A stretch of 64,000 nucleotides of DNA, from assembly GCA_038224325.1 (NCBI GenBank), contig JBBRFL010000012.1, forward strand, positions 10,249-74,248, read 5' to 3'. Positions 1,491-38,497 of this stretch are shown in pieces (position 1 is the first letter of the stretch; each line of letters starts with the position of its first letter). The DNA comes from Thermoanaerobaculia bacterium. Lineage in GTDB: Bacteria; Acidobacteriota; Thermoanaerobaculia; UBA5066; Gp7-AA6. The translations under genes and the position numbers were made by a program. The notes under the pieces were generated by a model that had not been told where the DNA came from, did no database searches, and saw only the letters and a program-made list of their open reading frames with translations.

Positions 1491-2512
1491 TACGCGACGA
1501 GGGCCCGCGCCGACCGGCAGAGTTTCTCCGCGTTCGGGAGGAAGAACTCCTCCAGCGGTGGCGAGTAGGGGACCGGGGTGTCCGGAGCCGTGACGCGCAC
1601 GAGCGGGCCGTCCAGGTACTCGAAGCAGCGCTCCGAGAGGACCGCCGCGATCTCGGCGCCGATGCCGCCGGTGCGCGTGGCCTCGTGCAGGAGGATCGCC
1701 TTGTTGGTCTTCGCGACGGACTCGAGGACCGTCTCCTCGTCCATGGGGAAGAGCGTCCGCAGGTCCACGATCTCGGCGTCGATGCCCTCGGCCTCCAGCG
1801 TCTTCGCGGCCTCGAGCGCGGTCCACACCATGGCGCCGTACGTGATGATGGAGAGGTCGCGCCCCTCGCGGCGGAGGGCCGCCTTCCCGATCGGCACGAT
1901 GTGATCGCCGGACGGCATCTCTTCCTTGATCCGGCGATAGAGGAACTTGTGCTCGAAGAAGAGAACCGGGTCGTCGTCGCGGATGGCCGCCTTGATCAGG
2001 CCCTTGGCGTCCGCGGCCGTCGCGGGCTGCACGACCTTCAAGCCTGGGGTGTGCGCGAAGTAGGCCTCCGGGTTCTGCGAATGGAATGGGCCGCCGTGAA
2101 CTCCGCCGCCGGAGGGGCCGCGGATGACCAGCGGGACGCCGACGCCCGTCCGATAGCGCGACTTCGCCGCGAAGTTCGTGATCATGTCGAACGCGCACGA
2201 GATGAAGTCGATGAACTGCATCTCGGCCACGGGCCGCATCCCCATCATGGCGGCGCCGACCGCGGCGCCGACGATCGCCGTCTCGGCGATCGGCGTATCG
2301 ATGACGCGCTCCTCGCCGAACTCCTCGATGAGCCCGTCCGTGACCTTGAACGCGCCGCCGTAGACGCCGATGTCCTCGCCGAGGAGGAAGACCCTCTCGT
2401 CGCGCGCCATTTCCTCGCGAATCCCCTCGCGGATTGCGTCAACGTAGGTCGTCAAGCCCTTCGCGGTCGGCGCGCCGGTGTCGGGCCCGGCGAGGTGGGG
2501 CGCGCCGGTCAC
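1487..2512 (-). CDS. 2-oxoacid (branched-chain/pyruvate) dehydrogenase E1 beta subunit
   Basis: Motifs GEDIGVYGGAFKVT, DTPIAE, EMQFIDF, HSQNPE. The GTG start overlaps the alpha-subunit stop (GTGA). Confidence 0.92.
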   Translation of the reverse strand: MTGAPHLAGPDTGAPTAKGLTTYVDAIREGIREEMARDERVFLLGEDIGVYGGAFKVTDGLIEEFGEERVIDTPIAETAIVGAAVGAAMMGMRPVAEMQFIDFISCAFDMITNFAAKSRYRTGVGVPLVIRGPSGGGVHGGPFHSQNPEAYFAHTPGLKVVQPATAADAKGLIKAAIRDDDPVLFFEHKFLYRRIKEEMPSGDHIVPIGKAALRREGRDLSIITYGAMVWTALEAAKTLEAEGIDAEIVDLRTLFPMDEETVLESVAKTNKAILLHEATRTGGIGAEIAAVLSERCFEYLDGPLVRVTAPDTPVPYSPPLEEFFLPNAEKLCRSARALVAY

Positions 2513-3516
2513 GACTGCCTCCGCACGATCGCGGGTTCGACCTCCGCCACTCCCGTGGCGTAGACGTTCTGGAGGGCGACCTCGACCGCCGGCAGCGGGC
2601 TCTGCTCGGCGAGCTCGACGTCGCGGTCGACCTCCTCCGTGACGCGCCGGTCCACGGCCGCGAGCTCCTCGGCCGTCGCCGTTCCCGCGTCGACCAGCGC
2701 CCTCAGGTAGCTCTCGATGGGATCCTTCTGACGCCAGGCCTCGAGCTCCGCCGGGGGAACGTACGACTGGGCGTCGTGCTCGGCGTGCCCCTTCATGCGA
2801 TAGGTCACGGCCTCCACCAGGGTCGGGCCGCCGCCCGCGCGCGCGCGATCGACGGCGCGCCGCGCCGATGCGTACACGGCCAGCACGTCGTTTCCGTCCA
2901 CGCTCTCGCCGGGGATCCCGTACGCGGCGGCCTTGTCGGCCAGGCACTTCGCGGCGGTCTGCTTGTGGTACGGCGTCGAGTACGCCCACCCGTTGTTCTC
3001 GGCGATGACGACGAGCGGGAGCTTCTGCACGGCCGCGAAGTTCAGGCCCTCGTGGAAGGCGCCGGTCGAGGTGCCGCCGTCGCCGATCCAGGTCATCGTG
3101 ACGAGGTCTTTCCTCTGCAGGCGCGCGGCGAGTGCGATCCCCGCCATGACGGGGATCAGGGCGCCCAGCATCGAGATGGGGGAGATCACCCCGCGCTCGG
3201 GGCGGCCGAAGTGCAGGTTGCAGTCCTTGCCTCCCGAGGGGGAGGTCGCCCGCGCCATGTACTGGGTCAGCACGTCGCGGGGCGAATACCCCATCACCAG
3301 GATGGCGCCGAGGTTGCGGATCAGCGGCCCGACGATGTCGCCCTTGGAGAGCGCGAAGGCGCTTCCCACGGACGTCGCCTCCTGGCCGAGCGAGCGGTAG
3401 AGGCCGCCGACCACCTTGCCCTGGCGGTACAGGTTCACGAGCTTCTCTTCGACCACGCGGTTCAACCGCATGAGGCGATAGAGGTCGAGCTTCTGTTCGC
3501 GGGTCAGGTCCGGCAC
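2509..3516 (-). CDS. 2-oxoacid dehydrogenase E1 alpha subunit (ThDP-dependent)
   Basis: ThDP motif GDGGTS...ENN, GQEA, YRMKGHAEHD. GGAGG lies upstream of the GTG at 3516. Confidence 0.92.
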   Translation of the reverse strand: MPDLTREQKLDLYRLMRLNRVVEEKLVNLYRQGKVVGGLYRSLGQEATSVGSAFALSKGDIVGPLIRNLGAILVMGYSPRDVLTQYMARATSPSGGKDCNLHFGRPERGVISPISMLGALIPVMAGIALAARLQRKDLVTMTWIGDGGTSTGAFHEGLNFAAVQKLPLVVIAENNGWAYSTPYHKQTAAKCLADKAAAYGIPGESVDGNDVLAVYASARRAVDRARAGGGPTLVEAVTYRMKGHAEHDAQSYVPPAELEAWRQKDPIESYLRALVDAGTATAEELAAVDRRVTEEVDRDVELAEQSPLPAVEVALQNVYATGVAEVEPAIVRRQS

Positions 3517-3589
3517 GGCGCCTCCAGTATGAAGTCTATATGAGCGCCGCGTCCGCGGGGCTCCGCCCGGGCGCTTATGATCGGGCTCC

Positions 3590-4555
3590 ATGGAACCCAA
3601 GGTCTCGGTCTTGATCGCGTCCGACCGCGTGGACACCCTGCTGCCGGCCTGCCTCGATTCGCTCGAGGACCAGGAGGGCGGCGTGCGTGTAGAGGCCGTC
3701 GTGGCGTCGTCCGAGGAGCCGCGGGCCGCGTCCCGCGACGTTCCCGTCCGATGGGTCCCGGCGCCGACCCGGAATCCCGCGCGGAGGAGGAACCTCGCCG
3801 CCGCCGCGGCGCGCGGGTCGATCCTCGCCTTTCTCGACGACGACGCGACCGCGGAGCCCGGATGGCTGGCCGCTGGCATGGCCGCCATGACCCGAGCCGA
3901 GATCGCCGGCGGCCCGGACCTGGGACCGCGGGGGGCGCCGTACGCGGAGCGGCTTTCGAACCTCCTCCTCGCGACGCCCTGGATCGGCAGCGGGGTCCCC
4001 GCGCACGAGTGGAGGCCGCGCGGCGGACCCGTTCGCGCCCCGCACGACGTGGCGCTGTGCAACCTCTTCGTGCGCCGCGAGACCTTCGAGGGCCTTGGCG
4101 GATTCGACGAGTCGCTCGGCTACATCGGCGAAGACACCGACTTCGTGCGGCGCGCGCTCGAAGCGGGTGCCCGCGTCGTGCTCGATCCGGACGTGCGCGT
4201 GCGCCACCGCCGCCGCGCATTCCCGGGGCCCTACGTCGCGCAGCGGTGGCGGTATCGCGTGAAGACGGGATCGCTGCTGGTTCAGAGGCCGGGCCTCCAT
4301 GGCCGGGGACGCGTGCTCGCGCTCCTCGCCGCCGCGTTCGGGGGATCGGCGGGCGCGGCGATTTTCGGGGCGCGCTTCCTCGTCCCCGCGGCGGGCCTCT
4401 ACGTGCTGTCGGCGTGGGCTCTGTCGTTTCCCATCTGGAGGAGAGACCCGGCGCTGGCGCCGGCGGTCCCGCTGGCGTTCGCCGTCCACCATGCGACCTA
4501 CGTCGCGGGCCTGCTCGCGGGCATCGGCCGCGGCGTCCTGGCGGCGGCTCGATGA
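3590..4555 (+). CDS. GT2 family glycosyltransferase with C-terminal membrane helices
   Basis: Motifs RNLAAAAARGSILAFLDDD, GGFDE...GEDTDF, QRWRY; hydrophobic C-terminus. Confidence 0.85.
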   Translation: MEPKVSVLIASDRVDTLLPACLDSLEDQEGGVRVEAVVASSEEPRAASRDVPVRWVPAPTRNPARRRNLAAAAARGSILAFLDDDATAEPGWLAAGMAAMTRAEIAGGPDLGPRGAPYAERLSNLLLATPWIGSGVPAHEWRPRGGPVRAPHDVALCNLFVRRETFEGLGGFDESLGYIGEDTDFVRRALEAGARVVLDPDVRVRHRRRAFPGPYVAQRWRYRVKTGSLLVQRPGLHGRGRVLALLAAAFGGSAGAAIFGARFLVPAAGLYVLSAWALSFPIWRRDPALAPAVPLAFAVHHATYVAGLLAGIGRGVLAAAR

Positions 4556-5640
4556 ACCGGCTGGAGCTGGCGGCGCACTGGGTGCGGGGGCGCGAGACCC
4601 TCCCGCGCTACCTGATCCTCGGGATGACCAACCTGTGCAACTCCAAGTGCGTGACCTGCTTCTACTGGGATCACCTGAACGTCAACCGGCACCTGGAGAT
4701 GCGGCTCGACGAGTACGAAAGGGCGCTGGAGGATCTCGGATCGCTCTACTCGGTGGTCTTGACTGGCGGCGAGCCGACGCTGAACCGCGAGCTTCCCGAC
4801 ATCACCCGGATCCTCTATCGCCGCCACGACGCCTCCAACGTGACGATGCCGACGAACTCGATCATCCCGGAGCAGGTCGAGTCCATCGTGGCCCGGGTTC
4901 TCGAGTCGCGCAGGGACGACCGCCAGACCTTCACGGTCGGCCTTTCGCTCGACCACCTGGGAGAACGGCACGACGTCATCCGCGGCGCGCCCGGCAACTT
5001 CGCCAGGCTGGAAGAAACGTACCGGCGCCTCGCGGCGCTGAAGCGGAAGTCCCGAGGCTTCACCCTCAATGCCCAGACCGTTCTGGCCTCGTTCAACCGC
5101 GACGACGTGCCCGAGATCACCGCCTGGGTCTCCCAGAACCTCCCCGAGCTCGACTTCCACTCGTTCGAGCTGCTGCGGCCGCCCTTTCCGGATCCGGCGA
5201 TCCGCGCGTTGACGGCGGCCGAGTACGCGGAGGCGCTCGCGCACCTTCGGCCCTACTGGGCACGCTTCGACGGCTACAGCCCGCTCCTTCGCAATCTCAA
5301 GGTGGGCGCTCGGACGGCCGAGCTTGAAACGCTCGAGCAGGAACGCATGGTCTATCCCTGCTACGCGGGCACGATCTCGGGCGTGCTCAATCCGGAGGGG
5401 ACCGTCTCGCTGTGCGAGGTCCAGTGGGAGATCGGGAACATCCGCGACTTCGACTACTCCTTCAAGAAAGCGTGGTTCTCAGCGAAGGCCGTCGACATGC
5501 GGCGCCGCATCGCCAACCGGGAGTGCTGGTGCACGCACTCCTGCTTCATGACCTCGTCGCTGCCCTTCTCCGTGAAGGGCGCCGCGCACCTGGCAAAGAC
5601 GGCGCTCCTGCCGTCGATGGGATCCGGAGGTGGAGCGTGA
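4552..5640 (+). CDS. Radical SAM protein with SPASM/twitch domain
   Basis: CNSKCVTC, LTGGEP, C-terminal CYAG...VSLCE...CWCTHSC. The ATG overlaps the GT2 stop. Confidence 0.88.
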   Translation: MNRLELAAHWVRGRETLPRYLILGMTNLCNSKCVTCFYWDHLNVNRHLEMRLDEYERALEDLGSLYSVVLTGGEPTLNRELPDITRILYRRHDASNVTMPTNSIIPEQVESIVARVLESRRDDRQTFTVGLSLDHLGERHDVIRGAPGNFARLEETYRRLAALKRKSRGFTLNAQTVLASFNRDDVPEITAWVSQNLPELDFHSFELLRPPFPDPAIRALTAAEYAEALAHLRPYWARFDGYSPLLRNLKVGARTAELETLEQERMVYPCYAGTISGVLNPEGTVSLCEVQWEIGNIRDFDYSFKKAWFSAKAVDMRRRIANRECWCTHSCFMTSSLPFSVKGAAHLAKTALLPSMGSGGGA

Positions 5641-10769: not shown

Positions 10770-11360
10770 ATGAAGATCGCGATGCCGGCTGCGGTCCTCG
10801 CGGGCGGCGCGTCGCGGCGGATGGGCCGGCCCAAGGCCGCCCTGCCCTATGGCGGCACCACCCTGCTGGAGTACCAGACCACGAAGCTGGCGGCGCTGTT
10901 CGACGAGGTCCTCATCGTCGCCCGGGAGGAGCCGGCCTTCCCGGCCGGGCCGGCTCGAGTCGTCCTCGACGAGGGTCCCGAGCGCGCCGCGATTTACGGA
11001 TTGATTCGCGCCCTCGAAGAAGCGGAGGACCGGATCTTCGTCCTCGCCGTGGATCATCCGGCCGTGACGCCCGTTCTCCTCCGCGCCATCGCCTACCGCA
11101 GCCTGGAGTCCGACGCCGCCGCCGTCGTCCCCCGCGCCGGCGGGCGCCTCCAGCCCCTGGCCGCGGTCTGGCGGCGCCGCTGCCTCGACGCGGCGCGCCG
11201 GCGTCTCCGCGCGGGGGATCTCTCGCTCCAGGACCTCGCGCGAGAGGTCGGCGCCGAGATCTTCGACGAAAGCGAGTGGAGCGCGATCGATCCCTCCGGC
11301 GCGGCGTTCGCCAACCTCAACACGCTGGACGATTACGCGGCGCACCGGGAGAGGGCGTGA
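10770..11360 (+). CDS. mobA: Molybdenum cofactor guanylyltransferase
   Basis: VLAGGASRRMGRPKA, AVDHP, QPLAAVW, FANLNT; lies next to moaC. Confidence 0.82.
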   Translation: MKIAMPAAVLAGGASRRMGRPKAALPYGGTTLLEYQTTKLAALFDEVLIVAREEPAFPAGPARVVLDEGPERAAIYGLIRALEEAEDRIFVLAVDHPAVTPVLLRAIAYRSLESDAAAVVPRAGGRLQPLAAVWRRRCLDAARRRLRAGDLSLQDLAREVGAEIFDESEWSAIDPSGAAFANLNTLDDYAAHRERA

Positions 11361-11890
11361 GCGGGACTCCCGCGCCGCCCCGCAAGCCCCGCCGCCCGCG
11401 TGGAGGCGGGCCCCTGCGACGCAGCCTCCTCCACGTGGACGCCCGCGGCCGCGCGCGCATGGTCGACGTCGGGGGGAAGGCGGTCACGCGGCGGGAGGCC
11501 CTCGCGCGCGGAGTCGTCGAGATGGGGAGCGCGGCCTTCGACGCGCTCGAGTCCGGAAAGCTCGCGAAGGGCGACGCCTTCGCGGTGGCGCGCGTGGCCG
11601 GGATTCAGGCCGCGAAGCGGACCTCGGAGATCGTCCCGCTGTGCCATCCCCTCGCCCTCGATTCCGTGGAGGTCGACGTCGACCTGGACCGCGCCCGTCG
11701 ACGAGCCGTCGTGACCGCGACCGCGCGGATCACGGGCAAGACCGGCGTCGAGATGGAGGCCCTGACCGCCGTTGCGGCCGCGTGCCTCGCGCTCTACGAC
11801 ATGATCAAGGCGTTGGACCGGGGCGCGAGCATCCGGGAGATCCTGCTGGTGCGGAAGTCGGGGGGACGCACCGGCGCGTACGAGCGATAG
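11357..11890 (+). CDS. moaC: Cyclic pyranopterin monophosphate synthase
   Basis: ARMVDV, AAKRTSEIVPLCHP, TGVEMEALT, YDMIKA, KSGG. Confidence 0.94.
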   Translation: MSGTPAPPRKPRRPRGGGPLRRSLLHVDARGRARMVDVGGKAVTRREALARGVVEMGSAAFDALESGKLAKGDAFAVARVAGIQAAKRTSEIVPLCHPLALDSVEVDVDLDRARRRAVVTATARITGKTGVEMEALTAVAAACLALYDMIKALDRGASIREILLVRKSGGRTGAYER

Positions 11891-11896
11891 CGGGGC

Positions 11897-12919
11897 TCAG
11901 CCTCCGCGCGTGTGCATCTCCAGGTGGGGATCTCGCCGCAGCTCGGTGATCGGGAAGAGCGGTGAGCGGTTGCGCAGTTCCAGGCGCTCCTCCGCGCCGC
12001 GATCGTCCCGTGCCGACCACCCGCGCGTGATCCGCTCCCGCAATTCCTCCGCCGAGGCTCCGGCGCGCAGCGGGCCGCGCAGGTCGACGCCGCGCGAGGC
12101 ATAGAGACACAGGTACCAGAGGCCGTCGGCCGTGAGTCGACTCCGGTCGCAGCTCCGGCAGAAGGGCGCCGTCGTCGAGGCGATGATCCCGAAGATCGTC
12201 CCGTCCGACAGGCGGAAGCGCTGCGCCGGCGCCGAGCCCCCGTCCGGCAGCGGCTCGGCCGCGCCGTAGCTCCGCGCGAGGATCTTCCGAATCTCGCTCC
12301 CCGGTACGACACGCTCGGGAGTCCAGTGGGTGGCGCCGCCCACGTCCATGTACTCGATGAACCGGACCTCCGCGCCCCAGCTCTTTCCCGCCTCGAGGAG
12401 GTCGGCGAGCTCGTCGTCGTTGGTCCCCCGGAGGACCACCGTGTCGATCTTGATCGAGTCGAAGCCGGCGCTCGCGGCCGACGCGATGCCCGCGAGCACC
12501 TTGTCGAGCGCGTCCGACCGGGTCAGCTCCCGGAATCGTTCCGGGCGCAGCGTGTCCAGGCTGACCGTGATTCGATCGAGCCCGGCTTCCCTCAGCGGAC
12601 GGGCCTGGTCGCTCAGCAGCACGCCGTTGGTCGTCATCGCGAGATCCCGGATTCGGGAAATGCCGGCCAGGATCCGCACGAGCTCGGGAAGGCCCTGGCG
12701 CACGAGCGGCTCTCCGCCCGTCAGCCGCACGCGATCGACGCCCGCCTCCGCGAAGATCTCCGCGAGAGTCCCGATCTCCTCGAAGCGCAGCAGGTCGTGG
12801 CGGGGCAGCCACGCGTACTCCGCCTCCGGCATGCAGTACGCGCACCGGAGGTTACAGCGGTCCGTGACCGAGAGGCGAAGGTTCCGGAGGGGTCGGCCCC
12901 GGGTGTCGAAGAGCTCCAT
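11897..12919 (-). CDS. moaA: GTP 3',8-cyclase
   Basis: LRLSVTDRCNLRCAYCMP, LTGGEP, FCRSCDRSRLTADG...LCL, C-terminal GG. Confidence 0.95.
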   Translation of the reverse strand: MELFDTRGRPLRNLRLSVTDRCNLRCAYCMPEAEYAWLPRHDLLRFEEIGTLAEIFAEAGVDRVRLTGGEPLVRQGLPELVRILAGISRIRDLAMTTNGVLLSDQARPLREAGLDRITVSLDTLRPERFRELTRSDALDKVLAGIASAASAGFDSIKIDTVVLRGTNDDELADLLEAGKSWGAEVRFIEYMDVGGATHWTPERVVPGSEIRKILARSYGAAEPLPDGGSAPAQRFRLSDGTIFGIIASTTAPFCRSCDRSRLTADGLWYLCLYASRGVDLRGPLRAGASAEELRERITRGWSARDDRGAEERLELRNRSPLFPITELRRDPHLEMHTRGG

Positions 12920-12926
12920 GCGTGGT

Positions 12927-12933
12927 TATATTA
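12927..12933. promoter_or_regulatory. Overlapping divergent -10 boxes for moaA and mog
   Basis: TATATT on + (12927-32, 6 nt before the mog GTG) and TAATAT on - (12933-28, 8 nt before the moaA ATG) in a 19-bp gap. Confidence 0.55.
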
Positions 12934-12938
12934 GCCGC

Positions 12939-13442
12939 GTGAGCATCCGGGTGGCCATCGTCACGGTCTCCGACGGCGCCGCGGCGGGGGCCCGGTCGGA
13001 TCGCGGCGGCCCCGCGTGCGAGGAGGCCCTGAGGGTCTCCGGCGTCGAGCACCGGGTGGTTTCGCGCGAGGTGATACCCGACGAGGCCAGGCAGGTGGCC
13101 CGGGCGGTGCGCGTCCGCGCCGACGCCGGCGACGCCGACCTGATCCTGCTGACCGGCGGGACGGGAGTGTCCCCCCGCGACCGGACCCCCGAGGGCGTCC
13201 GCGAGGTGATCGACTTCGAGGTTCCGGGTCTCGCGGAGAAGATGCGCTCGGAGACCTCCCGCGGCTTTCCCGCCGCGTACCTGTCCCGCCAGATCGTCGG
13301 AGTGCGCCGCCGGACCCTCGTGGTGGCGCTGCCCGGCTCGCCCCGCGGAGCGGCCGACTGCCTCGCCGCGATCCTCGGCCTCTTACCGCACGCGATTGCG
13401 CTCATCCAGGGCGCGCGCCCCGACCACCCCGACCCGGCGTGA
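12939..13442 (+). CDS. mog: Molybdopterin adenylyltransferase (Mog/MoaB family)
   Basis: IVTVSD, DRGGP, IPDE, LTGGTGVSPRDRTPE, LPGSP. Confidence 0.88.
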   Translation: MSIRVAIVTVSDGAAAGARSDRGGPACEEALRVSGVEHRVVSREVIPDEARQVARAVRVRADAGDADLILLTGGTGVSPRDRTPEGVREVIDFEVPGLAEKMRSETSRGFPAAYLSRQIVGVRRRTLVVALPGSPRGAADCLAAILGLLPHAIALIQGARPDHPDPA

Positions 13443-13476: not shown

Positions 13477-15153
13477 ATGAGCCCGGTCCGCGCCGGAATC
13501 GACGGGCTCCTCGAGAGCTCGTGGCCGATCGCCGGCAAGCGCATCGGCCTCATCAGCAACCCGTCGGGGGTGACCGGCTCCGGCGTCCCGACGTGGAAGG
13601 CGCTGCGCGGGGCGGCGAACTCTCGCCTCGTGCGGCTCTTCGGGCCCGAGCACGGGCTGCAGGGGGGAGCGGTGTACATGGAGGCGGTCGGCGCCTCGAT
13701 CCACGCGGCGTCGGGACTCCCGATCGTGTCGCTGTACGGAAGCTCCGCGGAGAGCCTCAAGCCGCGGCGCGAGGATTTCGCGGACCTGGAGGCGATCGTC
13801 TTCGACATCGCCGACGTCGGGAGCCGCTACTACACGTACATCTGGACGATGATGCTGGCGATGGAGGCCTGCGCGAGCGCGCGCCTGCGCTTCGTCGTGT
13901 GCGACCGGCCCAACCCGATCGGCGGCTCCGTCGAGGGAGCGCCCCAGTCGACCGGCTACCTGACTTTCGTGGGGCTCCACCCGATTCCCGTGCGCCACGG
14001 GATGACGGCCGGCGAGCTGGCGAGGCTCTTCGCCGCGGAGCGCAAGCTCGATCTCGACCTCGTCGTCTGCCCCGCCGCCGGTTGGGCGCGCGACATGCCG
14101 TTCGCTTCGACCGGCTTGCCCTGGGTCGCGCCTTCGCCCAACATGCCCTCGCCCGCGACGGCGCTGTTGTATCCGGGGATGTGCCTGCTCGAGGGCACGA
14201 ACCTCTCGGAGGGAAGGGGCACGACCCGCCCCTTCGAGCTCGTCGGCGCCCCGTGGCTCGAGTCGCAGACCCTGGCCGATTCCTTGAACGCCCTGGCGAT
14301 GCCCGGAGTCTCGTTCCTTCCCTCAGCGTTCCGTCCGATGTTCGACAAGCACTCCGGCAAGACCTGCGAGGGTGCGTTCCTCCGCGTGACCGACGCCGAG
14401 TCGTTCCGGCCGTTCCAGACGGGGCTCAAGATCATCGAGACCGCGCGGCGCCTGGCCCCCCTCGAGTTTCGATGGCGCGCCGAGCCGTACGAGTTCGATT
14501 CCCGGCCCGCGATCGATCTCCTGACGGGCTCTCCCCGCTTCCGGGAGACGCTCGAGCAGGGCGGGAGCCTCCGGGCGGAAATCGCGCGCCACTTCGACGC
14601 CGTCGCGCCGTTCCTGGAGCGGCGCGAGTCCTTCCTCATGTACCCGGACCGGCGGCCCGCCGCGGTCGCGTTCGTCGGCGGCCACGACTCCGGAAAGACC
14701 AGCGTGATCGTCGAGCTGGTGCCCCGCCTGGCGGCCCGGGGTCTCCGCGTCGGCACGATCAAGCACACGACGCGGGACGTGCCGGACGACACGCCGGGCA
14801 AGGACTCCCAGCGCCACGCCGCTGCCGGAGCGGCGGTGGGCGCGCTGGTCACGCCGGAGCGCACGACGGCCCGCCGGTTCGGCCCGGAGGAGCCGCTCGA
14901 GGCGGTGCTCCGCCGCGAATTCTCGGACTGCGACCTCGTCCTCGTGGAGGGTTATAAGTCCCTCCCGATTCCCCGCATCGAGGTGCTGCGGACCTCCGCC
15001 GCGCGCCCCGACGTCTTCGAGCCGGCCGCCCGCATATCGGATGGGCCCTTCACGGGTTCGGTTCCCACGCTGTCGTTCGGCGACTGGGACGCGATCGTCG
15101 CGACCGTCCTGCAGCTGGCCGGCCTCGACCGTTCGCCGGATCCGAAGAAGTGA
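13477..15153 (+). CDS. NamZ/DUF1343 exo-beta-N-acetylmuramidase fused to a C-terminal MobB domain
   Basis: FGPEHG, DIADVGSRYYTY, DRPNP, PSPNMP and EGTNLSEGRGTTRPFE, then in frame FVGGHDSGKT...VGTIKH...GKDS...DLVLVEGYK. Confidence 0.85.
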   Translation: MSPVRAGIDGLLESSWPIAGKRIGLISNPSGVTGSGVPTWKALRGAANSRLVRLFGPEHGLQGGAVYMEAVGASIHAASGLPIVSLYGSSAESLKPRREDFADLEAIVFDIADVGSRYYTYIWTMMLAMEACASARLRFVVCDRPNPIGGSVEGAPQSTGYLTFVGLHPIPVRHGMTAGELARLFAAERKLDLDLVVCPAAGWARDMPFASTGLPWVAPSPNMPSPATALLYPGMCLLEGTNLSEGRGTTRPFELVGAPWLESQTLADSLNALAMPGVSFLPSAFRPMFDKHSGKTCEGAFLRVTDAESFRPFQTGLKIIETARRLAPLEFRWRAEPYEFDSRPAIDLLTGSPRFRETLEQGGSLRAEIARHFDAVAPFLERRESFLMYPDRRPAAVAFVGGHDSGKTSVIVELVPRLAARGLRVGTIKHTTRDVPDDTPGKDSQRHAAAGAAVGALVTPERTTARRFGPEEPLEAVLRREFSDCDLVLVEGYKSLPIPRIEVLRTSAARPDVFEPAARISDGPFTGSVPTLSFGDWDAIVATVLQLAGLDRSPDPKK

Positions 15154-15806
15154 GGCCCGGGGGCGAGCCCTCCTTCGTCGTCTTCGACCTGGACGGCACG
15201 CTCATCGACGGCTACGCGGCGATCGGCGACGCTTTGGGCTTCGCGATGCGCCGCCTCGGCGTGCCGGAGCTCTCGCCCGAGCGGGTGCGCGCGATGGTCG
15301 GCCGCGGCCTGGAGACGCTCCTCGAAGACGCAGTCGGCGCGGAGCGCGCGGACGAGGGAGTGCGACTGTTTCGCGAGCGGTATCCGGAGGTGGCGGTCGA
15401 GAAGTCCCACCTCCTGCCCGATGTCGGGAGCGTGCTGGAGATTCTCGCGGGACGCGGCCACCCGATGGCGGTCGCTTCCAACAAGCCCGCCCGTTTCTCC
15501 CGGATGATCCTCGAGGCGAAGGGGATCGGCGGGCGGTTCCGCGCCGTCGGCGGTCCCGACGCGGAGACCCCGCCCAAGCCCGATCCCGCAATGCTCCGGA
15601 TGCTGATGTCCGGGGCCGGGCGCGCCGCGCAGGACACCCTCGTCGTCGGGGACATGGAGGTCGACTACGAGTTCGCGCGCGCCGCGGGATGCCGGGTCGC
15701 GTTGATTCCGGGAGGCTCCCGCTCGCGGAAGGATCTGGCCGCCCTGGAGGCCGACGCGCATCTGGATCGGATCGCCGATCTCCCGGAGTGGATCGCGCGC
15801 GCCTGA
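15150..15806 (+). CDS. HAD-family phosphatase (phosphoglycolate phosphatase-like)
   Basis: FDLDGTLID, ASNK, KPDP, VGD. Confidence 0.85.
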   Translation: MRPGGEPSFVVFDLDGTLIDGYAAIGDALGFAMRRLGVPELSPERVRAMVGRGLETLLEDAVGAERADEGVRLFRERYPEVAVEKSHLLPDVGSVLEILAGRGHPMAVASNKPARFSRMILEAKGIGGRFRAVGGPDAETPPKPDPAMLRMLMSGAGRAAQDTLVVGDMEVDYEFARAAGCRVALIPGGSRSRKDLAALEADAHLDRIADLPEWIARA

Positions 15807-15855: not shown

Positions 15856-16965
15856 ATGAACACGACGTTCGATTCGACCGGCGGGTGCGCGGGAGAAGTT
15901 CGCTTCTTCCTCCCGGGCCCCGTCTGGGTGCGCGAGGCCGTGCGCCAGGCGATGGCGCACGAGGCGATCGGGCACCGCGGGAAGGCGTTCGCCGACCTCT
16001 ATGGGCGCATCCTCCCGCGCCTGAAGCGGCTGTTCCGGACGGAGGGGTTCGCCTTCACTGCGACCTCCGCGGCGACCGGGCTGTGGGAGGCTGCGCTCGC
16101 GAACGTGGATCCCGAGCGCGTGCTGGCGATCACGTCGGGCGCGTTCTCCGAGCGGTGGGCCGCCTGCGCGCGAGACCTCCGCCTCGCGGTGGACGTCCTC
16201 GAGGCGCCTTGGGGGACCCCTGTCGATCCGGCGGAGGTGCGCCGCGCGCTCGGGAAGGCGCGGTACGACGCCGTCACCGTCGTCCACTCCGAGACCTCGA
16301 CCGGGACGCTCAACGATCTCGCCGCGATCGCGCGCGAGGTCCGCGAGGGATCCAACGCGTTCCTGCTCGCCGACGTCGTCACCTCGCTGGCGGGATCCCC
16401 CGTCGAGACCGACGCGTGGGGACTCGACTTCGCGCTCTCGGGGTCGCAGAAGGCGCTCGCGCTTCCGCCCGGTCTCTCCGTCGCATTCGCCTCGCAGCGC
16501 TACCTGCGGAGCGCGCGCGACCGGTCCCGCGCGCACTACCTGCGGCTCTCGGAAACGGAAGCGTTCGCTCAAAAGAACCAGACTCCCTACACGCCCTCGA
16601 CGCCGCATCTGTTCGCCCTGGACCTCCAGCTTGATCACGTGCTGGCGGAGACCCTCGAGGGCCGCTGGGCTCGCCACGAGGCGATGCGCGACCGGGTCCA
16701 AGTGTGGGCGGCCGAGAGGGGCTACTCCTACGCTCCTCCGGAGGGCGCCCGCTCCTGGACCGTCTCCTGCCTCAGGCCCCCGCCGGGCGTGTCCGCCGAG
16801 GCCCTCGTGGCGAAGGCGAAGGAGCGGGGGTTCACGATCGGCGGCGGTTACGGGCCGTGGAAGAGCGCCACCTTCCGCATCGGGCACATGGGGGACGTGG
16901 ACCTCGCCTCCCTCGACGCGCTGCTCTCCGTCCTCGACGTCTGCGCGCGGGAGGCCGCGGCGTGA
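15856..16965 (+). CDS. Class V PLP aminotransferase (serine-pyruvate/SerC-alternative type)
   Basis: LPGPV, HRG, VHSETSTG, SGSQKALALPPG, FRIGHMG. Confidence 0.88.
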   Translation: MNTTFDSTGGCAGEVRFFLPGPVWVREAVRQAMAHEAIGHRGKAFADLYGRILPRLKRLFRTEGFAFTATSAATGLWEAALANVDPERVLAITSGAFSERWAACARDLRLAVDVLEAPWGTPVDPAEVRRALGKARYDAVTVVHSETSTGTLNDLAAIAREVREGSNAFLLADVVTSLAGSPVETDAWGLDFALSGSQKALALPPGLSVAFASQRYLRSARDRSRAHYLRLSETEAFAQKNQTPYTPSTPHLFALDLQLDHVLAETLEGRWARHEAMRDRVQVWAAERGYSYAPPEGARSWTVSCLRPPPGVSAEALVAKAKERGFTIGGGYGPWKSATFRIGHMGDVDLASLDALLSVLDVCAREAAA

Positions 16966-18539
16966 GCCGGGTCCTGGTCGCCGAGAAGATCGCCGCGGCC
17001 GGGCTCGAAATGATCCGCAAGGCGGGGCACGAGGTCGTGGACCTCGCCGGCGCCTCCCGCGAGCGGCTCCTCGAGGCGCTGGCCGACGCCGATGCGCTCC
17101 TGGTCCGCAGCGCGACGAAGGTCGATGCGGCGTTGCTGGAGGCCGCGCCCCGCCTGACGGTCGTGGGCCGGGCGGGGGTCGGCGTGGACAACGTGGACGT
17201 GCCCGCTGCGTCCGCCCGCGGCGTGCTCGTGCTCAACTCACCCACGGGCAACGTCGTCTCGGCCGTCGAGCACACGTTCGCCGTGCTGCTCGCGTTGCTT
17301 CGCCGGGTGCCCGAGGCGGCGGCGTCGATGGCCGCGGGCCGCTGGGAGAAGTCGAAGTTCCTGGGGTCGGAGCTCGCGGGCAAGACCGTCGGCATCGTCG
17401 GCCTGGGACAGGTCGGGTCCCGCGTCGCCTCGCGGGCCCGCGCGTTCGAGGCCCGCGTGATCGCCCACGACCCCTTCCTTCCGCTCGAGAAGGCGCAGGA
17501 GATGGGCGTGCCCCTGGTGGCGCTCGACAGCCTCCTCGAGCAGTCGGACGTCGTGACGCTGCACTCGACGGCGTCGGAGAAGGGAAGGGCCCTGATCGGG
17601 AGGGACGAGATCGCCCGGATGCGGCCCGGCGCGGTGCTCGTCAACGTCGCACGCGGCAGCCTCGTGGATCGGGCTGCGCTGCACGAGGCGATCTCGCAGG
17701 GGCGGCTGGCCGGAGCGGCGCTCGACGTGTTCGATCCCGAGCCGCCCGACCCCGACGATCCGCTCCTGAAGCTGCCCAACGTCGTCGCGACCCCGCACCT
17801 CGGGGCCTCGACCGTGGAGGCCCAGGAGCGCGTCTCGATCCAGACGGTCGAGGCTCTCCTGGCGGCGCTCGCCGGGGCGCCGTACGTTCCCGCCGTGAAC
17901 CTGCCCTTCCGCGGGCCCAAGGATTCCGAGGGCGCCTCGGGATGGATGCGGCTGGCCGAGCGGACGGCGCACTTCCTGGCGGTCGTCGGCGGAGGGCGGT
18001 TCACCCGCCTCGCGGTGGAGACCTGGGGCCTGCCGGAGGACCTGCTCCGGCCCGTCGCTGTCGCCGCGGTGAAGGGCGCGCTCGAGACGCAGACGCCGGA
18101 GACCGTCAACTACGTCAACGCGCTGTACGTCGCGCAGGATCGCGGTCTCTCGGTCAGCGAGACGCGGCACGAGGATCCGGGGACCTACGCGCGGTCGCTG
18201 CGCGTCACGCTGACGGGCGCCGCGCGGTCCGGGAGCGCCGACGCCACCCTCTTCGCGGGACGCGACGCCCGAGTCGTGGCCGTGGACGGGCTGCCGCTCG
18301 AGTTCCGGCCGGAGGGAACCGTCGTCTTCCTTCGCAACCGGGATGTTCCGGGCGTCGTCGGAAGCGTGGGAACCATCCTCGGGGAAGCGGGAGTGAACAT
18401 CGCGAACTTCTCGCTCGCCCGCGGCCGCGGAGAGGAGGCCGCCGCCGTGATCGCCGTCGACTCCGCTCCGCCCCGGAGCGTGCTCGAGCGGCTGCAGCAG
18501 ACCCCCGCCGTGGAAGAGGTGCGCGTGGTGAGCTGGTGA
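16962..18539 (+). CDS. serA: D-3-phosphoglycerate dehydrogenase (long form with ACT domain)
   Basis: VRSATKV, GRAGVGVDN, GLGQVG, NVARG, TPHLGAST, C-terminal ACT domain (DVPGVVG...NIANF). Confidence 0.93.
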   Translation: MSRVLVAEKIAAAGLEMIRKAGHEVVDLAGASRERLLEALADADALLVRSATKVDAALLEAAPRLTVVGRAGVGVDNVDVPAASARGVLVLNSPTGNVVSAVEHTFAVLLALLRRVPEAAASMAAGRWEKSKFLGSELAGKTVGIVGLGQVGSRVASRARAFEARVIAHDPFLPLEKAQEMGVPLVALDSLLEQSDVVTLHSTASEKGRALIGRDEIARMRPGAVLVNVARGSLVDRAALHEAISQGRLAGAALDVFDPEPPDPDDPLLKLPNVVATPHLGASTVEAQERVSIQTVEALLAALAGAPYVPAVNLPFRGPKDSEGASGWMRLAERTAHFLAVVGGGRFTRLAVETWGLPEDLLRPVAVAAVKGALETQTPETVNYVNALYVAQDRGLSVSETRHEDPGTYARSLRVTLTGAARSGSADATLFAGRDARVVAVDGLPLEFRPEGTVVFLRNRDVPGVVGSVGTILGEAGVNIANFSLARGRGEEAAAVIAVDSAPPRSVLERLQQTPAVEEVRVVSW

Positions 18540-19600
18540 GCCGGACCCGCGTCGTCGTGCTGTTCGGCGGGCGCTCCGTCGAGCGCGAGGTGTCGCGGAT
18601 TTCGGCCCGGACGATCTGCGCGGCGCTCGATCCGTCGCGGTACGAGGTGATCCCGCTCGCCGTCGGGCGGGACGGAAGGTTTCTCGACGCGGCCGGGTCC
18701 GCGCGGCTCCTCGCGTCCGACCCCGTTCCGGAAAAATACCGGATCGCCGACACGGTCTCCGGCGCCGCGATCTTGCCGGCGGAAATCGCGCCCGGGAGAG
18801 CCGACATCGTGTTCCCGATCATCCACGGGACGACCGGCGAGGACGGCGCCCTGCAGGGATTCCTGGAGACGCTCGACGTCCCGTACGTCGGGGCGGGTGT
18901 CACGGCGTCGGCGGTCGGCATGGACAAGGCCGTTTTCAAGGCGATCCTGCGCGACGCCGGCATCCCGGTTCCCCGGGCGATGGTGCTGCGGGCGGCCGCC
19001 GACTCCGGCCGGGCGGCGGGCATGCCCCTCCCGGTGTTCGTCAAGCCCTCGTGCGGCGGATCCTCCGTGGGTGTGACGAAGGTCAAGCGCTCCGAGGATC
19101 TCGAGCCCGCGGTGGCGCTCGCCCTGCGCTACGACGAGCGCGTCCTCGTGGAGGAGGCCATCGACGCCCGCGAGCTCGAGTGCGCGGTTCTCGGCAACGA
19201 CGAGCCCGAGGCGTCAGTCCCGGGGGAGATCGTTCCGGGTCGCGAGTTCTACGACTACGACGACAAGTACCGGGACGACAAGGCGAAGCTCCTCATCCCG
19301 GCCGCGGTCGCGGGGGCCGTCGCGGCGGAGGCCCGGCGGCTCGCCGTCGCGGTCTTCCGGCTCTGTGGAGTCTCCGGGATGGCGCGCGTGGACTTCTTCC
19401 TGGAGCGGGGCACGGACCGCCTGCTCGTCAACGAGATCAACACCCTGCCCGGTTTCACGGCGATTTCTATGTACCCGAAGCTCTGGGAGGCGAGCGGGCT
19501 CCCGCTGCCGAAGCTCCTGGACGAGCTCATCCGGCTGGGGCTCGAGCGCCGGGAGAAGCGCCGTCGGCTGCTGACCGAGCCACCGGCCGAGCTGTCGTAG
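18536..19600 (+). CDS. ddl: D-alanine--D-alanine ligase
   Basis: FGGRSVEREVS, HGTTGEDG, MDK, GSSVG, FYDYDDKY, NEINTLPGFT. Confidence 0.94.
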   Translation: MSRTRVVVLFGGRSVEREVSRISARTICAALDPSRYEVIPLAVGRDGRFLDAAGSARLLASDPVPEKYRIADTVSGAAILPAEIAPGRADIVFPIIHGTTGEDGALQGFLETLDVPYVGAGVTASAVGMDKAVFKAILRDAGIPVPRAMVLRAAADSGRAAGMPLPVFVKPSCGGSSVGVTKVKRSEDLEPAVALALRYDERVLVEEAIDARELECAVLGNDEPEASVPGEIVPGREFYDYDDKYRDDKAKLLIPAAVAGAVAAEARRLAVAVFRLCGVSGMARVDFFLERGTDRLLVNEINTLPGFTAISMYPKLWEASGLPLPKLLDELIRLGLERREKRRRLLTEPPAELS

Positions 19601-27821: not shown

Positions 27822-28502
27822 CTAGCGGGCCGAGACGACGACGCCCTCGAATCCCGCCGCCTCCAGGCGCCGCAGGACCGACTCGGCGTCGGCGCGGCTG
27901 CTCAGAGGGCCGACCTTGACCCGGGTCAGGCCCGCGAAGGGCTCGAGGTAGGACTCGAATCCCGCGGCTTGCAGACGCTCCCTGTGCCGGTCCGCGCGCT
28001 CGCTCTCGCCGAAGGACCCCGCCTGGACGGCCCACGCCCCGGTCGGGGCGCCCGGCTCGGGATCGCTCCCCGCGCGGCGGACGAGCCGCAGCCGCACGGG
28101 CGCGACTCCCGGGCCGATCACGCCGATCCGGCGGGCCGCCTCGCGCGAGAGGTCGATGATCCGGCCCCGCACGAACGGCCCCCGGTCGTTGATGCGGACG
28201 CGCACGCTCTTTCCGCTGTCCACGTTGGTCACCTCGACGACGGTGCCGAGCGGAAGGTCCCGGTGCGCGGCGGTCAGGCGGTCGGTGTCGAAGATCTCTC
28301 CCGAGGAAGTCGGCTTGCCGTCGAACCCGTCGCCTCCTCCGTACCAGGACGCCATCCCCTCCTCGCTCCATTCCGTCGGAGGAGGCGCCGAGCCCGCCGG
28401 CGCGGGCGCCGGAGCCAGCGCGCGCCGCGAGGCGCAGGCCGAGCAGAAGAGGCAGAAGAGGGCGAGGAGGACGCCGAGGAGATGCCGGCGCCGGCCGATC
28501 AC
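27822..28502 (-). CDS. rlpA: Septal lytic transglycosylase RlpA lipoprotein (DPBB + SPOR)
   Basis: Lipobox-like CSAC, GMASWYG, TAAHRDLP, RINDRGPF, IDLS, SPOR motif VQAGSF. Confidence 0.9.
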   Translation of the reverse strand: MIGRRRHLLGVLLALFCLFCSACASRRALAPAPAPAGSAPPPTEWSEEGMASWYGGGDGFDGKPTSSGEIFDTDRLTAAHRDLPLGTVVEVTNVDSGKSVRVRINDRGPFVRGRIIDLSREAARRIGVIGPGVAPVRLRLVRRAGSDPEPGAPTGAWAVQAGSFGESERADRHRERLQAAGFESYLEPFAGLTRVKVGPLSSRADAESVLRRLEAAGFEGVVVSAR

Positions 28503-29926
28503 ACGCGCACGGGAGAGCTCTGCGCCGCGGCGGCCCCCGCGAGGGCCGGATCGAGCTCCTCGCGAACGAAGACCTCGACCTGCTCCGCGGCGCGGCCGAT
28601 CAGCTTCTCCGGCTGGACCGCCTCGGCGAGCTGAGCCGGCGTCAGCCCGAAGGCCGGGTCCCCGGCGACTCGGTCCAGGAGATCCGCCGGGTCGCCCGTC
28701 TCGCTGCGGCGCTCTGCCGCGGCCCGCGCGTGGACGCGCAGCTTCTCGTGGAGCTCCTGCCGGTCGCCTCCCCGGCGGACGGCCTCCATCAGCAGATTCT
28801 CGGTGGCCAGGAACGGGATCTCGGCCTCGAGCCGGCGCCGGCAGACCTCCGGGTGCACGACGAGGCCGCCGACGACGTTCTCCATCAGGATCAGGATTGC
28901 GTCGGCGGCGAGGAACGCCTCGGGCACGGCGATCCGCTTGTTGGCGGAGTCGTCGAGAGTGCGCTCGAGCCACTGCGTGGCGGCGGTCATCGCCGTGTCG
29001 AGCGAGAGCGCGATGACGTGGCGGGCGAGCGAGCAGATGCGCTCGGCCCGCATCGGGTTGCGCTTGTACGGCATCGCCGAGGAGCCCACCTGCGAGGACT
29101 CGAACGGCTCCTCGAGCTCGCCCTCGTGCTGCAGCAGGCGCAGATCCGAGCCGACCTTGTGGAGGCTCTGCGCGAGCGAGGAGAGGGCGTGAACGACGCG
29201 ATCGTCCTGCTTGCGCGAGTACGTCTGCCCGGACACGATCTGGAGCCGCTCGAACCCGGCGCGCCGGGCGATGGACGAGTCGAGGTCCTGGACTTTCGCG
29301 GAGTCGCCGTCGAAGAGCCGGAGGAAGGACGCCTGCGTCCCCGTCGCGCCCTTGGCCCCCAGGAACCGCAGCCCCGCGCGCGTGGCGCGGACCTCCTCGA
29401 GGTCCATGAGGAGATCGGAGGCCCACAGCGCGGCGCGCTTTCCGACCGTCGTCGGCTGAGCCGGCTGGTAGTGCGTGTAGGCGAGCGCGGGCAGGTCCCG
29501 GTGCGCGAGGGCGAAATCGCGCAGCCTGCGAAGGACCGACACGAGGCGCCGCTCCACCAGGGCGAGTGCGTCGCGCATCTGGATCAGGTCCCCGTTGTCG
29601 GTGACGAAGGCCGAGGTCGCGCCCCAGTGGATGATGCCGCGGGCCGCCGGCGCCGCCTCTCCGAAGACGCGGACGTGCGCCATCACGTCGTGCCGGGTGC
29701 GCGCCTCCTCCGCCTCGGCTGCCGCGAAGTCGATGTCGGACTGGTGGGAGCGCATCTGCTCGATCGCGTCATCGGAGATCGGAAGGCCGAGCCGGCGCTC
29801 CTCCTCGGCGAGCCAGAGCCAAAGCTGGCGCCAGATCTCGAACTTCCGTTGCGGCGAAAAGAGCCCCGACATCTCGGCCGAGGCGTAGCGCTCGGCCAGC
29901 GGGTTGACGTACCCGTCAGTCTTCAC
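28499..29926 (-). CDS. purB: Adenylosuccinate lyase
   Basis: RHDVMAH, HWGATS, THYQPAQ, GSSAMPYKRNP. Confidence 0.95.
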   Translation of the reverse strand: MKTDGYVNPLAERYASAEMSGLFSPQRKFEIWRQLWLWLAEEERRLGLPISDDAIEQMRSHQSDIDFAAAEAEEARTRHDVMAHVRVFGEAAPAARGIIHWGATSAFVTDNGDLIQMRDALALVERRLVSVLRRLRDFALAHRDLPALAYTHYQPAQPTTVGKRAALWASDLLMDLEEVRATRAGLRFLGAKGATGTQASFLRLFDGDSAKVQDLDSSIARRAGFERLQIVSGQTYSRKQDDRVVHALSSLAQSLHKVGSDLRLLQHEGELEEPFESSQVGSSAMPYKRNPMRAERICSLARHVIALSLDTAMTAATQWLERTLDDSANKRIAVPEAFLAADAILILMENVVGGLVVHPEVCRRRLEAEIPFLATENLLMEAVRRGGDRQELHEKLRVHARAAAERRSETGDPADLLDRVAGDPAFGLTPAQLAEAVQPEKLIGRAAEQVEVFVREELDPALAGAAAAQSSPVRV

Positions 29927-37281: not shown

Positions 37282-38435
37282 GCGCGCGCCGGTCGGGGAC
37301 TCTCGCTCTCGCAGTCCTCGCGGCCGCCCTCTCCGTGCGCGCGGGTTGCGCCCTCGACGCTCCTGCGGCCCGCACGTACTCCCTCCGGTCCGGCCGTTCC
37401 CTGCGCGTCGAGACGTTCGTCGAGGGGCTCGAGGTGCCCTGGTCGATCGTCTTCACGTCTCCGTCGCGGATGCTGGTGAGCGAGCGTCCCGGCCGCATTC
37501 GGGTCGTCGAGGGCGGCGTCCTCCAGGCCCGGCCGCTGTCCGTAGTCGCCGACATCGAGGCCCGCGGCGAGAGCGGCCTGATGGGGCTCGCGGTGGCGCC
37601 CGACTACGCGCGATCGCGCCACATCTTCGCGGCCTACGCCTACGACACGGCGGGCGGGCCGCGGGTTCGCGTGGTCCGGCTCCGGGACGACGGTTCCGGG
37701 GTGTCGGAACGCACGGTGATCGTCGAGGGGATTTCCGCGGCGCAATTCCACGCCGGGTGCCGTCTGCGATTCGGGCCCGACGCGAAGCTCTACGTCACGA
37801 CCGGCGACGCGACGGACGGGCCAATCGCCCAGCGGATGGACTCGCTCAGTGGAAAGACGCTTCGGTTGAACGCGGACGGGGCGATTCCCTCGGACAATCC
37901 CTTTCCCGGATCGCGGGTCTACTCGCTGGGCCACCGGAACTCGCAGGGACTGGACTGGGATCCAAGGTCCGGCCTGCAGTTCCAGACCGAACACGGCCCG
38001 TCCGGATTCGACGGGCCCGGAGGCGGCGACGAGGTCAACATCGTCGAGCCCGGCAAGAACTACGGCTGGCCGCTGATCCACCACCGCGAGACCCGCGCGG
38101 GGCTCGAGTCGCCCCTTCTCGAGTACACGCCGGCCGTCGCGCCCTCGGGCGCCTCGTTTTGCCGCGGGGGACTCCTGCCGTCCTTCGATGGCGACTTCTT
38201 CTTCGCCGCGCTTCGCGGGGAAAAATTGATCCGGGTTCGGCTCGAGCCCGTCAACCGGCGACGCGTGGCCGAGACCGAGGAGCTCTTCGCGGGCGCGTAC
38301 GGCCGCCTGCGCGACGCGGTCTTCGGGCCGGATGGGGCCCTGTACGTCGCCACGAGCAATCGCGACGGACGGGGTCGGGCCCGAACGGGGGACGACCGCA
38401 TCCTGCGGGTCGTCGAGATCTCGACCCCTCGTTGA
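37278..38435 (+). CDS. PQQ-dependent aldose sugar dehydrogenase (YliI/GSDH family)
   Basis: Signal peptide, PWSIVF, ERPGR, FHAGCRLRFGPD, GHRNSQG, EHGP, GRLRD. Confidence 0.88.
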   Translation: MSARRSGTLALAVLAAALSVRAGCALDAPAARTYSLRSGRSLRVETFVEGLEVPWSIVFTSPSRMLVSERPGRIRVVEGGVLQARPLSVVADIEARGESGLMGLAVAPDYARSRHIFAAYAYDTAGGPRVRVVRLRDDGSGVSERTVIVEGISAAQFHAGCRLRFGPDAKLYVTTGDATDGPIAQRMDSLSGKTLRLNADGAIPSDNPFPGSRVYSLGHRNSQGLDWDPRSGLQFQTEHGPSGFDGPGGGDEVNIVEPGKNYGWPLIHHRETRAGLESPLLEYTPAVAPSGASFCRGGLLPSFDGDFFFAALRGEKLIRVRLEPVNRRRVAETEELFAGAYGRLRDAVFGPDGALYVATSNRDGRGRARTGDDRILRVVEISTPR

Positions 38436-38497
38436 ACGGCGATCCCGGATTTCGCGTTCGGTCGGGGGCGAAAAGCGGTAAATTCCCGCTTTACTTC

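Follow-up and report, generated by a model that had tools for sequence, protein, structure and literature searches.

An order-specific fusion of a predicted cytoplasmic NamZ-type domain to the molybdenum cofactor protein MobB in Thermoanaerobaculia

The 64,000-nucleotide stretch of Thermoanaerobaculia DNA analysed here as a whole (the window; GenBank assembly GCA_038224325.1, contig JBBRFL010000012.1, positions 10,249 to 74,248) carries a gene in which a DUF1343/NamZ domain is continued, within a single frame, by a MobB domain. This frame is open on the forward strand from either a TTG at 13396 or an ATG at 13477 to the TGA at 15151-15153. The ATG matches the starts of the orthologues in an alignment; the TTG adds 27 residues that are rich in Arg, Pro and Thr, charged and non-hydrophobic. 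Pfam identifies NamZ_N (PF07075, E 5.8e-70, 235.3 bits against a cut-off of 26.9), NamZ_C (PF20732, E 2.4e-48, 165.2 bits against 25) and, at residues 397-513, MobB (PF03205, E 3.2e-30, 105.2 bits against 26.6), and the same C-terminal half exceeds the cut-off of the NCBIfam mobB equivalog model TIGR00176 (105.4 bits against 76.2). The open frame, Pfam and TIGR00176 thus bear out an earlier sequence-only reading of this DNA, which had proposed an in-frame fusion of a complete DUF1343/NamZ domain to a full MobB domain, and the motifs that it quoted (GGHDSGKT, IKH, GKDS, LVEGYK and the end of NamZ, which FLMYPDRRPAAVAF spans) all lie where it had placed them. A linker of about 5 residues, whose length is kept across three families in the alignment, separates NamZ_C from MobB, and the peptide of the fusion protein that spans this junction is FLMYPDRRPAAVAFVGGHDSGK. 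Public sources that name the protein call the whole chain of 558 amino acids (aa) "MobB".

Both halves resemble proteins of solved structure. The first 390 residues align to the DUF1343 structures 4K05 (phmmer E 3.7e-66) and 4JJA, while E. coli MobB (1NP6, 1P9N; E ~9e-17) is the counterpart of residues 397-541. Residue 4 already pairs with residue 13 of the 4K05 construct, which leaves no space for a signal peptide; none was found in the fusion protein from the ATG or the TTG start, and the export trait of the characterised NamZ is absent here. The NamZ half lacks an export signal, as the sequence-only reading had also stated, and is predicted to be cytoplasmic, in agreement with this alignment and with the charged character of the TTG extension.

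The residues expected of each family are retained. When 16 fused orthologues, drawn from three families and sharing 45-84% identity with the window protein, are aligned, the invariant positions (16/16) of the NamZ half are FGPEHG (with Glu58), D110/D113, R117-YYT, DRPNP, H174-G, PSPN, YPG, E239 and S244-E-x-R247-GT-x-RPFE, and those of the MobB half are G401, G406, K407, T408, K429-H430, G441/D443-S444 and D486/E491-G492. Upon addition of 42 unfused NamZ sequences, every residue invariant across the family was found to be kept by the fused clade; in 106 fused and unfused sequences taken together, R247 is invariant and E58 is at least 90% conserved. For the Bacillus subtilis enzyme (BsNamZ), two key residues were proposed, Arg279 and a Glu (Glu92) with which beta-strand 2 ends on its C-terminal side, according to excerpts of the founding paper (PMC8054146). 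Glu58 likewise follows a strand (49-56) of the predicted model described below, and the offset of about 34 residues between Glu92 and Glu58 agrees with the domain start in the same excerpts (PMC8054146), this mapping being by position and offset rather than by direct alignment. The ratio of non-synonymous to synonymous substitution rates (dN/dS; Nei-Gojobori, closest pairs) amounts to 0.15-0.20 in the NamZ half and to 0.16-0.21 in the MobB half, figures that are rough because dS (0.3-0.9) is partly saturated. Judged from these patterns, both halves look functional.

The genome from which the window derives (G000) is a 3.66-Mb metagenome-assembled genome (MAG) of 102 contigs, 95.6% complete, with one NamZ_N match and one MobB match, both of which are the fusion gene. 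Mis-assembly, a frameshift that hides a stop or a decaying pseudogene could give such a frame, and split-looking database entries, together with a copy broken over three frames in genome G003 (a 75%-complete, 10-contig assembly), would be in keeping with this. Short MobB-only proteins, at least 59% identical, were considered as split genes and rejected: they lie on short contigs or retain NamZ_C, and the one that was examined results from a frameshift. In the latter, the 160-aa MobB P0299 on a 196-kb contig (locus L060), the only frameshift falls precisely on the junction; loci L061-L064 are 87-92% identical to L060, and L062 lies on a contig of genome G350 in which the frame is intact. Genomes G007, G017 and G021 were considered as natural deletions of the gene and also rejected. 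All three are without MoaC yet keep enzymes that use bis-molybdopterin guanine dinucleotide (bis-MGD), hence the locus is probably unassembled rather than deleted; in G007 the whole mobA-mog DNA is missing from the assembly. Against an artefact stand a frame that is intact in over 30 independent genomes, with some of the copies on contigs of 2.9-4.5 Mb, and purifying selection (dN/dS of about 0.15-0.2). Logan contigs point the same way: the continuity of the junction, which the sequence-only reading had wanted checked, is supported by one DNA contig from an unrelated soil sample that bridges 14615-14961 without an indel. Contigs from RNA libraries of relatives cover both halves, none of them across the junction, and so are no proof of transcription. 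With next to no probability left to it, an artefactual or decaying gene is effectively refuted.

The window's family (f1) and two others (f2 and f3) make up three families of one order of Thermoanaerobaculia, and 38 of 41 related genomes, the window genome included, match the fusion protein. Within the genus, 18 of 25 genomes have an uninterrupted match that begins no later than residue 4 and reaches at least residue 553; the other seven comprise three fragments at contig ends (G005, G009 and G015), the frame-broken G003 and the three empty genomes considered above. Both domains fall in one match in 7 of 9 f2 genomes and in 5 of 7 f3 genomes (one being the unpublished G030). In a sample of 121 genomes of the class, exactly one MobB was found in all 14 of f1, 10 of 12 of f2 and all three of f3, located, among the matches listed, within open frames of 531-958 aa; two f2 genomes, G039 and G040, lack MobB, and their only NamZ is an unfused paralogue. 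The MobB of other families is small and on another contig or distant, or is fused to MobA (G413 of f8 and G393 of f11); with these, the MobB of the NamZ fusion shares only 30-45% identity. Of 301 genomes sampled across the phylum, 249 give a match, which in most of those listed is confined to NamZ and stops near residue 390. Among the 150 best matches, a stop-free span of both domains occurs in six genomes (G000, G006, the unpublished G064, G025, G027 and G029), all in the window's order. The sequence-only reading had held that relatives encoding the two always separately and unlinked would speak against a true fusion: outside the order they are indeed separate and unlinked, and within it every assembled locus carries them as a fusion.

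Public protein collections extend this picture. A search of 5.8 billion proteins returned at least 120 clusters at 90% identity that combine PF03205, PF07075 and PF20732, some on contigs of 1.3-4.1 Mb, and the ESM Atlas contains two clusters of NamZ-MobB architecture, with 87 and 51 members, from Acidobacteriota where the phylum is known. Among the best 150 of the 50%-identity representatives of 15 billion proteins, three are full-length fusions (P0121, P0124 and P0126) and four are fusion fragments, the rest being NamZ alone or joined to something else. All fused carriers among the matches listed are uncultured MAGs, with genomes of 3-6 Mb. The suggestion of the sequence-only reading that genome compaction gave rise to the fusion fares badly against such genome sizes and against its fixation across an order. 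The fusion is a real, conserved and order-specific architecture built from two known families.

Because the fusion is confined to one order and the genes are separate outside it, a single fusion event at or near the base of the order would be the simplest history; a weaker independent fusion elsewhere could lie below the best 150 matches. Two sets of candidates for the architecture beyond the order were rejected. In G214, of another order, a 145-aa frame (locus L015, G214:C35 5405-5872) that follows the TAG stop of NamZ was considered as a split relic; it has no P-loop and no Pfam match, and its marginal similarity to MobB (E 0.015) may reflect a decayed MobB or chance. In G156 and G173, the matches get beyond residue 450 only if stops are read through, and in G156 Pfam gives NamZ alone. 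The MobB-MobA fusions of the sister families have MobB at the N-terminus and lie at 2281-4254 on the reverse strand of L023 (G393) and at 2736-4886 on the forward strand of L022 (G413). In G393 this gene is 1.9 kb from an unfused NamZ gene and divergent from it, a proximity that other f11 genomes do not share.

The two halves may also form a single physical unit. AlphaFold2, run on an alignment of 106 rows, predicts one compact body for the 558-aa protein, with a predicted local distance difference test score (pLDDT) averaging 92.2, a predicted template modelling score (pTM) of 0.90 and pLDDT of 92-93 in the junction blocks (381-400). A 46%-identical f2 orthologue gave 92.4 and 0.82, with a somewhat softer junction. 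Foldseek, with template modelling (TM) scores normalised to target length, matched the NamZ half to 4k05 (0.91) and 4jja (0.82) and the MobB half to 1np6, 1p9n, 4nkr, 1xjc and 2f1r (0.72-0.79; E. coli MobB 0.74-0.76), and it found no solved chain that covers both domains. Since NamZ makes up 70% of the chain, pTM values of 0.90 and 0.82 are higher than expected from that domain by itself and suggest that MobB is placed against the NamZ half with some confidence. Together with a linker that is short, conserved in length and predicted to be ordered, and with a fusion kept under similar constraint on both halves down to 45-49% identity, this placement would suit functional coupling, namely a rigid machine in which the NamZ-like hydrolase would respond to MobB's nucleotide state or MobB would be gated by the NamZ half, so that turnover of the cell wall would be tied to Mo/W cofactor maturation or to GTP status. 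However, AlphaFold often packs short-linked domains together, the genes are unlinked outside the order (the lone proximity in G393 is absent from other f11 genomes) and the full-text literature yielded no paper that joins MobB to DUF1343 or to NamZ, in line with the sequence-only reading, which knew of no link between them. Such coupling is unlikely, if still the most serious of the alternatives.

The gene neighbourhood (Table 1) differs between families. In the window, the fusion gene begins 34 nt after the end of mog and directly follows mobA-moaC-moaA-mog, a position that fits a MobB part serving the molybdenum cofactor (Moco). The haloacid dehalogenase (HAD)-family phosphatase encoded downstream has phosphoglycolate phosphatase as its best match, below cut-off, and scores only 60 bits with the MupP model. 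This Moco-gene context recurs in f1, in G006 and G020 (MoaC 1.7 to 2.5 kb upstream of the fusion), in G064 from a second f1 genus and at the public locus L060, where the order mog-fusion-HAD was judged by sequence likeness. The f2 gene lies between SpoIID and a zinc-dependent alcohol dehydrogenase gene, followed by the aminotransferase, serA and ddl, and the f3 gene precedes the aminotransferase and serA, divergent from a SpoIIE-domain gene. Hence the cluster that the sequence-only reading had described around the fusion holds for the window and for f1 and fails as a general property of the fusion. The synteny of NamZ with the aminotransferase-serA-ddl block (15856..19600 in the window) is conserved across the class, and the unfused NamZ of G214 precedes the aminotransferase and serA as well. 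As f2, f3 and G214 share this block, it would be the ancestral address of namZ, at which mobB joined; the Moco genes would thus have come to lie upstream later, in f1.

Table 1. Features of the NamZ-MobB locus, in window coordinates
Feature	Position	Strand	Residues	Basis or remark
mobA-like guanylyltransferase gene	10770..11360	+		Pfam NTP_transf_3; best NCBIfam models are MobA families, all below cut-off
moaC	11459..11890	+		Pfam domain from 11459; true start somewhat upstream
moaA	11897..12919	-		radical SAM and Mob_synth_C (Pfam)
mog/moaB-type MoCF_biosynth gene	12918..13442	+		start ATG 12918 or GTG 12939
NamZ-MobB fusion gene	13477..15153	+	558 aa and stop	open frame, three Pfam domains, orthologue-aligned start
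NamZ_N domain	13543..14151	+	23-225	Pfam
FGPEHG motif in NamZ_N	13639-13656	+		invariant; Glu58 is the putative catalytic Glu
NamZ_C domain	14164..14643	+	230-389	Pfam
SEGRGTTRPFE motif in NamZ_C	14206-14238	+		holds conserved Arg247
NamZ end and junction stretch	14632-14673	+		FLMYPDRRPAAVAF
Internal ATG (Met388)	14638..14640	+	388	not conserved (alignment)
Junction PDRRPAA	14644..14664	+	390-396	alignment; very short, predicted ordered
MobB domain	14665..15135	+	397-553	
Walker A GGHDSGKT in MobB	14677-14700	+		
IKHT motif in MobB	14758-14769	+		
GKDS motif in MobB	14797-14808	+		
DLVLVEGYK motif in MobB	14932-14958	+		
HAD-family phosphatase gene	15150..15806	+		GTG start overlaps the fusion TGA stop (GTGA)
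Class-V aminotransferase gene	15856-16965	+		within block 15856..19600
serA	~16962-18539	+		within block 15856..19600
ddl	~18548-19600	+		within block 15856..19600

The fusion gene may have a promoter of its own. In 15 of 25 orthologous loci (L005, L007-L012, L014, L018, L019, L021, L024, L025, L027 and L028), a TANNNT hexamer (TAAGAT, TAGAAT or TAGACT) lies upstream of the predicted start, with 5-13 nt between its end and the start, against a chance of about 0.9% per locus, the loci being related and one of the 15 being the unpublished G030. The hexamer suggests a promoter with a -10 box-like element and a leaderless or near-leaderless mRNA; the copy in the window is without it upstream of its start. 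The sequence-only reading had further proposed that an internal ATG could yield free MobB. This codon exists (Met388), and it is unique to the window genome, position 388 being Leu, Ile or Val in all 15 other aligned orthologues; no Shine-Dalgarno sequence lies at working distance from it, the sole GGAG being about 18 nt upstream. Free MobB, as Met388 is not conserved, does not appear to be a conserved product. At the other end of the protein, the orthologues of L012 and L014 have C-terminal extensions, in which no further domain was found. Upstream in the window, moaA and mog are divergent with zero intergenic space, so their promoters would lie inside each other's coding sequence or their mRNAs would be leaderless. 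Away from the fusion gene, the window also encodes a MOSC-domain protein (37346-39214) and, on the reverse strand, an RlpA-like lytic transglycosylase with DPBB_1 and SPOR domains (27825-29426).

The window genome, judged by its genes, needs bis-MGD. Besides MobA, MoaA, MoaC and Mog it encodes MoeA, which lies on a different contig (contig 52), and it has four PF00384 matches to bis-MGD enzymes, one with an in-frame TGA. The best of these matches (G000:C48:16350-17621, reverse strand) is the one with the in-frame TGA and is probably a formate dehydrogenase of selenocysteine type. In Methylorubrum extorquens, MobB is essential for the maturation of a formate dehydrogenase that carries W-bis-MGD, and it binds MoeA1, according to the accessible part of PMC13197769.

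On the NamZ side, the fusions of relatives are informative. Of 20 long representatives scanned, 8 join NamZ to a beta-lactamase (AmiE-like) fold and one joins it to AnmK, a cytoplasmic kinase. As these partners are enzymes of peptidoglycan recycling, they support, by analogy, a cell-wall role for the NamZ lineage, cytoplasmic members included. Individual fusions join NamZ to AnmK (P0212), to a sodium:solute symporter (SSF; P0160) and to a gamma-glutamyl hydrolase-like peptidase C26 (P0197). The window genome has one GH3 NagZ-like gene, and it also carries a 1022-aa frame (L071, G000:C1, 1623-4688, reverse strand) that combines an APH-family kinase, a peptidase M23 and a class-III aminotransferase.

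Altogether, the NamZ-MobB protein is probably a stable, lineage-specific bifunctional fusion, in which a cytoplasmic NamZ-type hydrolase and a genuine MobB keep their usual, unrelated jobs. The N-terminal 390 residues would form a cytoplasmic exo-hexosaminidase domain of glycoside hydrolase family 171 (GH171, NamZ-type) with conserved active-site residues, and the C-terminal 160 residues would be a genuine MobB, which as a GTP-binding P-loop protein assists the final steps of Mo/W bis-MGD assembly. In this scheme, mobB would have been attached once, at or near the base of the order, to the 3′ end of a namZ already upstream of aminotransferase-serA-ddl, and the fusion would have been retained since because both activities are needed. 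That each half does the usual job of its family, and that the fusion requires no biochemical coupling, is what we infer from these data.

Several observations weigh against this bifunctional interpretation. No Moco genes adjoin the fusion gene in f2 and f3. The window genome gave no MurQ above cut-off (best 30 bits against 302) and no AnmK, its two full-length APH-family kinases both lack a MurU-like nucleotidyltransferase neighbour, and a search that was not exhaustive found no MurU-AmgK cassette; NamZ usually co-occurs with MurQ, as stated in excerpts of the founding paper (PMC8054146). The presence of MobB as a sole copy does not prove a role in Moco synthesis, since MobB is dispensable in E. 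coli, according to the accessible part of PMC13197769, and since G039 and G040 have bis-MGD enzymes in its absence. Finally, the ordered linker of about 5 residues and the pTM values hint at a predicted fixed interface, which a purely incidental fusion does not predict.

The gaps in the recycling pathway of a genome whose sole NamZ is the fused one, together with the position after mobA-moaC-moaA-mog in f1, would be in keeping with a repurposed DUF1343 that is no longer active on peptidoglycan and acts as a scaffold or dimeriser for MobB, or as a pterin or nucleotide binder by means of its Rossmann-like fold; the whole protein would in that case serve the maturation of Moco or of the tungsten cofactor (Wco). 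MobB is said, in the literature on 1NP6, to be a dimer. NamZ is a dimer in the species studied, according to excerpts of PMC8054146, which could favour a dimeriser. However, the fused clade retains all family-invariant NamZ residues (106 sequences), including the putative catalytic Glu58 and Arg247, which a scaffold role would not require. Moreover, the older synteny is with SpoIID and ddl rather than with Moco genes, and close unfused relatives are joined to AnmK or AmiE-like domains. Such a loss of the ancestral activity is thus distinctly improbable. A rigid co-evolved unit in which the GTP state of the P-loop is coupled to the glycosidase-fold domain, giving a nucleotide-gated cytoplasmic muramidase or making DUF1343 a component of Moco or Wco synthesis, appears doubtful to a similar degree. 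The predicted tight junction nevertheless keeps both the coupling and the recruitment of DUF1343 alive.

The label "MobB" on the whole chain hides a complete GH171 domain, and cytoplasmic NamZ-like enzymes appear widespread in Acidobacteriota, as the phylum sample indicates, a phylum with 0 occurrences in the accessible text of the founding NamZ paper (PMC8054146). The role of MobB, dispensable in E. coli but essential for the maturation of the tungsten formate dehydrogenase in Methylorubrum (PMC13197769), is still debated. Its long-kept fusion to an enzyme outside the Moco pathway may be a clean case of genes joined neutrally yet irreversibly, or it may point to a partner so far unrecognised. 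Coupling or recruitment, if true, would give this poorly understood protein a new partner and provide a new handle on its function. The NamZ-MobB architecture is catalogued automatically in databases, and full-text searches found no paper on it.

Compared with known systems, the NamZ half has the NamZ_N and NamZ_C architecture and the conserved Glu and Arg of BsNamZ (YbbC), the founding member of CAZy family GH171, and shares its fold with the DUF1343 structures BF0371 (4K05) and BF0379 (4JJA) of Bacteroides fragilis. It differs in that BsNamZ is secreted, according to excerpts of PMC8054146, whereas the fusion NamZ is devoid of a signal peptide, bears a C-terminal MobB and occurs in a genome in which no MurQ was found, unlike the usual co-occurrence. 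NamZ is often fused, as in AmiE-like beta-lactamase fold-NamZ, NamZ-AnmK, SSF transporter-NamZ and peptidase C26-NamZ proteins; several of these partners act on cell-wall fragments, and MobB, for which no role in the cell wall is known, stands apart from them. The MobB half shares the P-loop fold, Walker A, KH, GKDS and LVEG with E. coli MobB (1NP6, 1P9N) and with the standalone 4NKR, 1XJC and 2F1R, from which it differs in that its N-terminus is joined to a 390-aa glycosidase domain. MobB is itself a frequent fusion partner, as the MobB-MobA fusions in sister families of the class illustrate. The catalogued fusions comprise MobA/MobB (NF011056, NF011059), MobB/MoeA (NF011060), MobB with an iron-sulfur (FeS) domain (NF011062-65) and MobB with an unknown domain (NF011066), and all of these models score far below cut-off on the window protein. 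Their partners belong mostly to the Moco pathway, whereas in the window protein MobB occupies the C-terminus and is joined to a glycosidase of peptidoglycan type.

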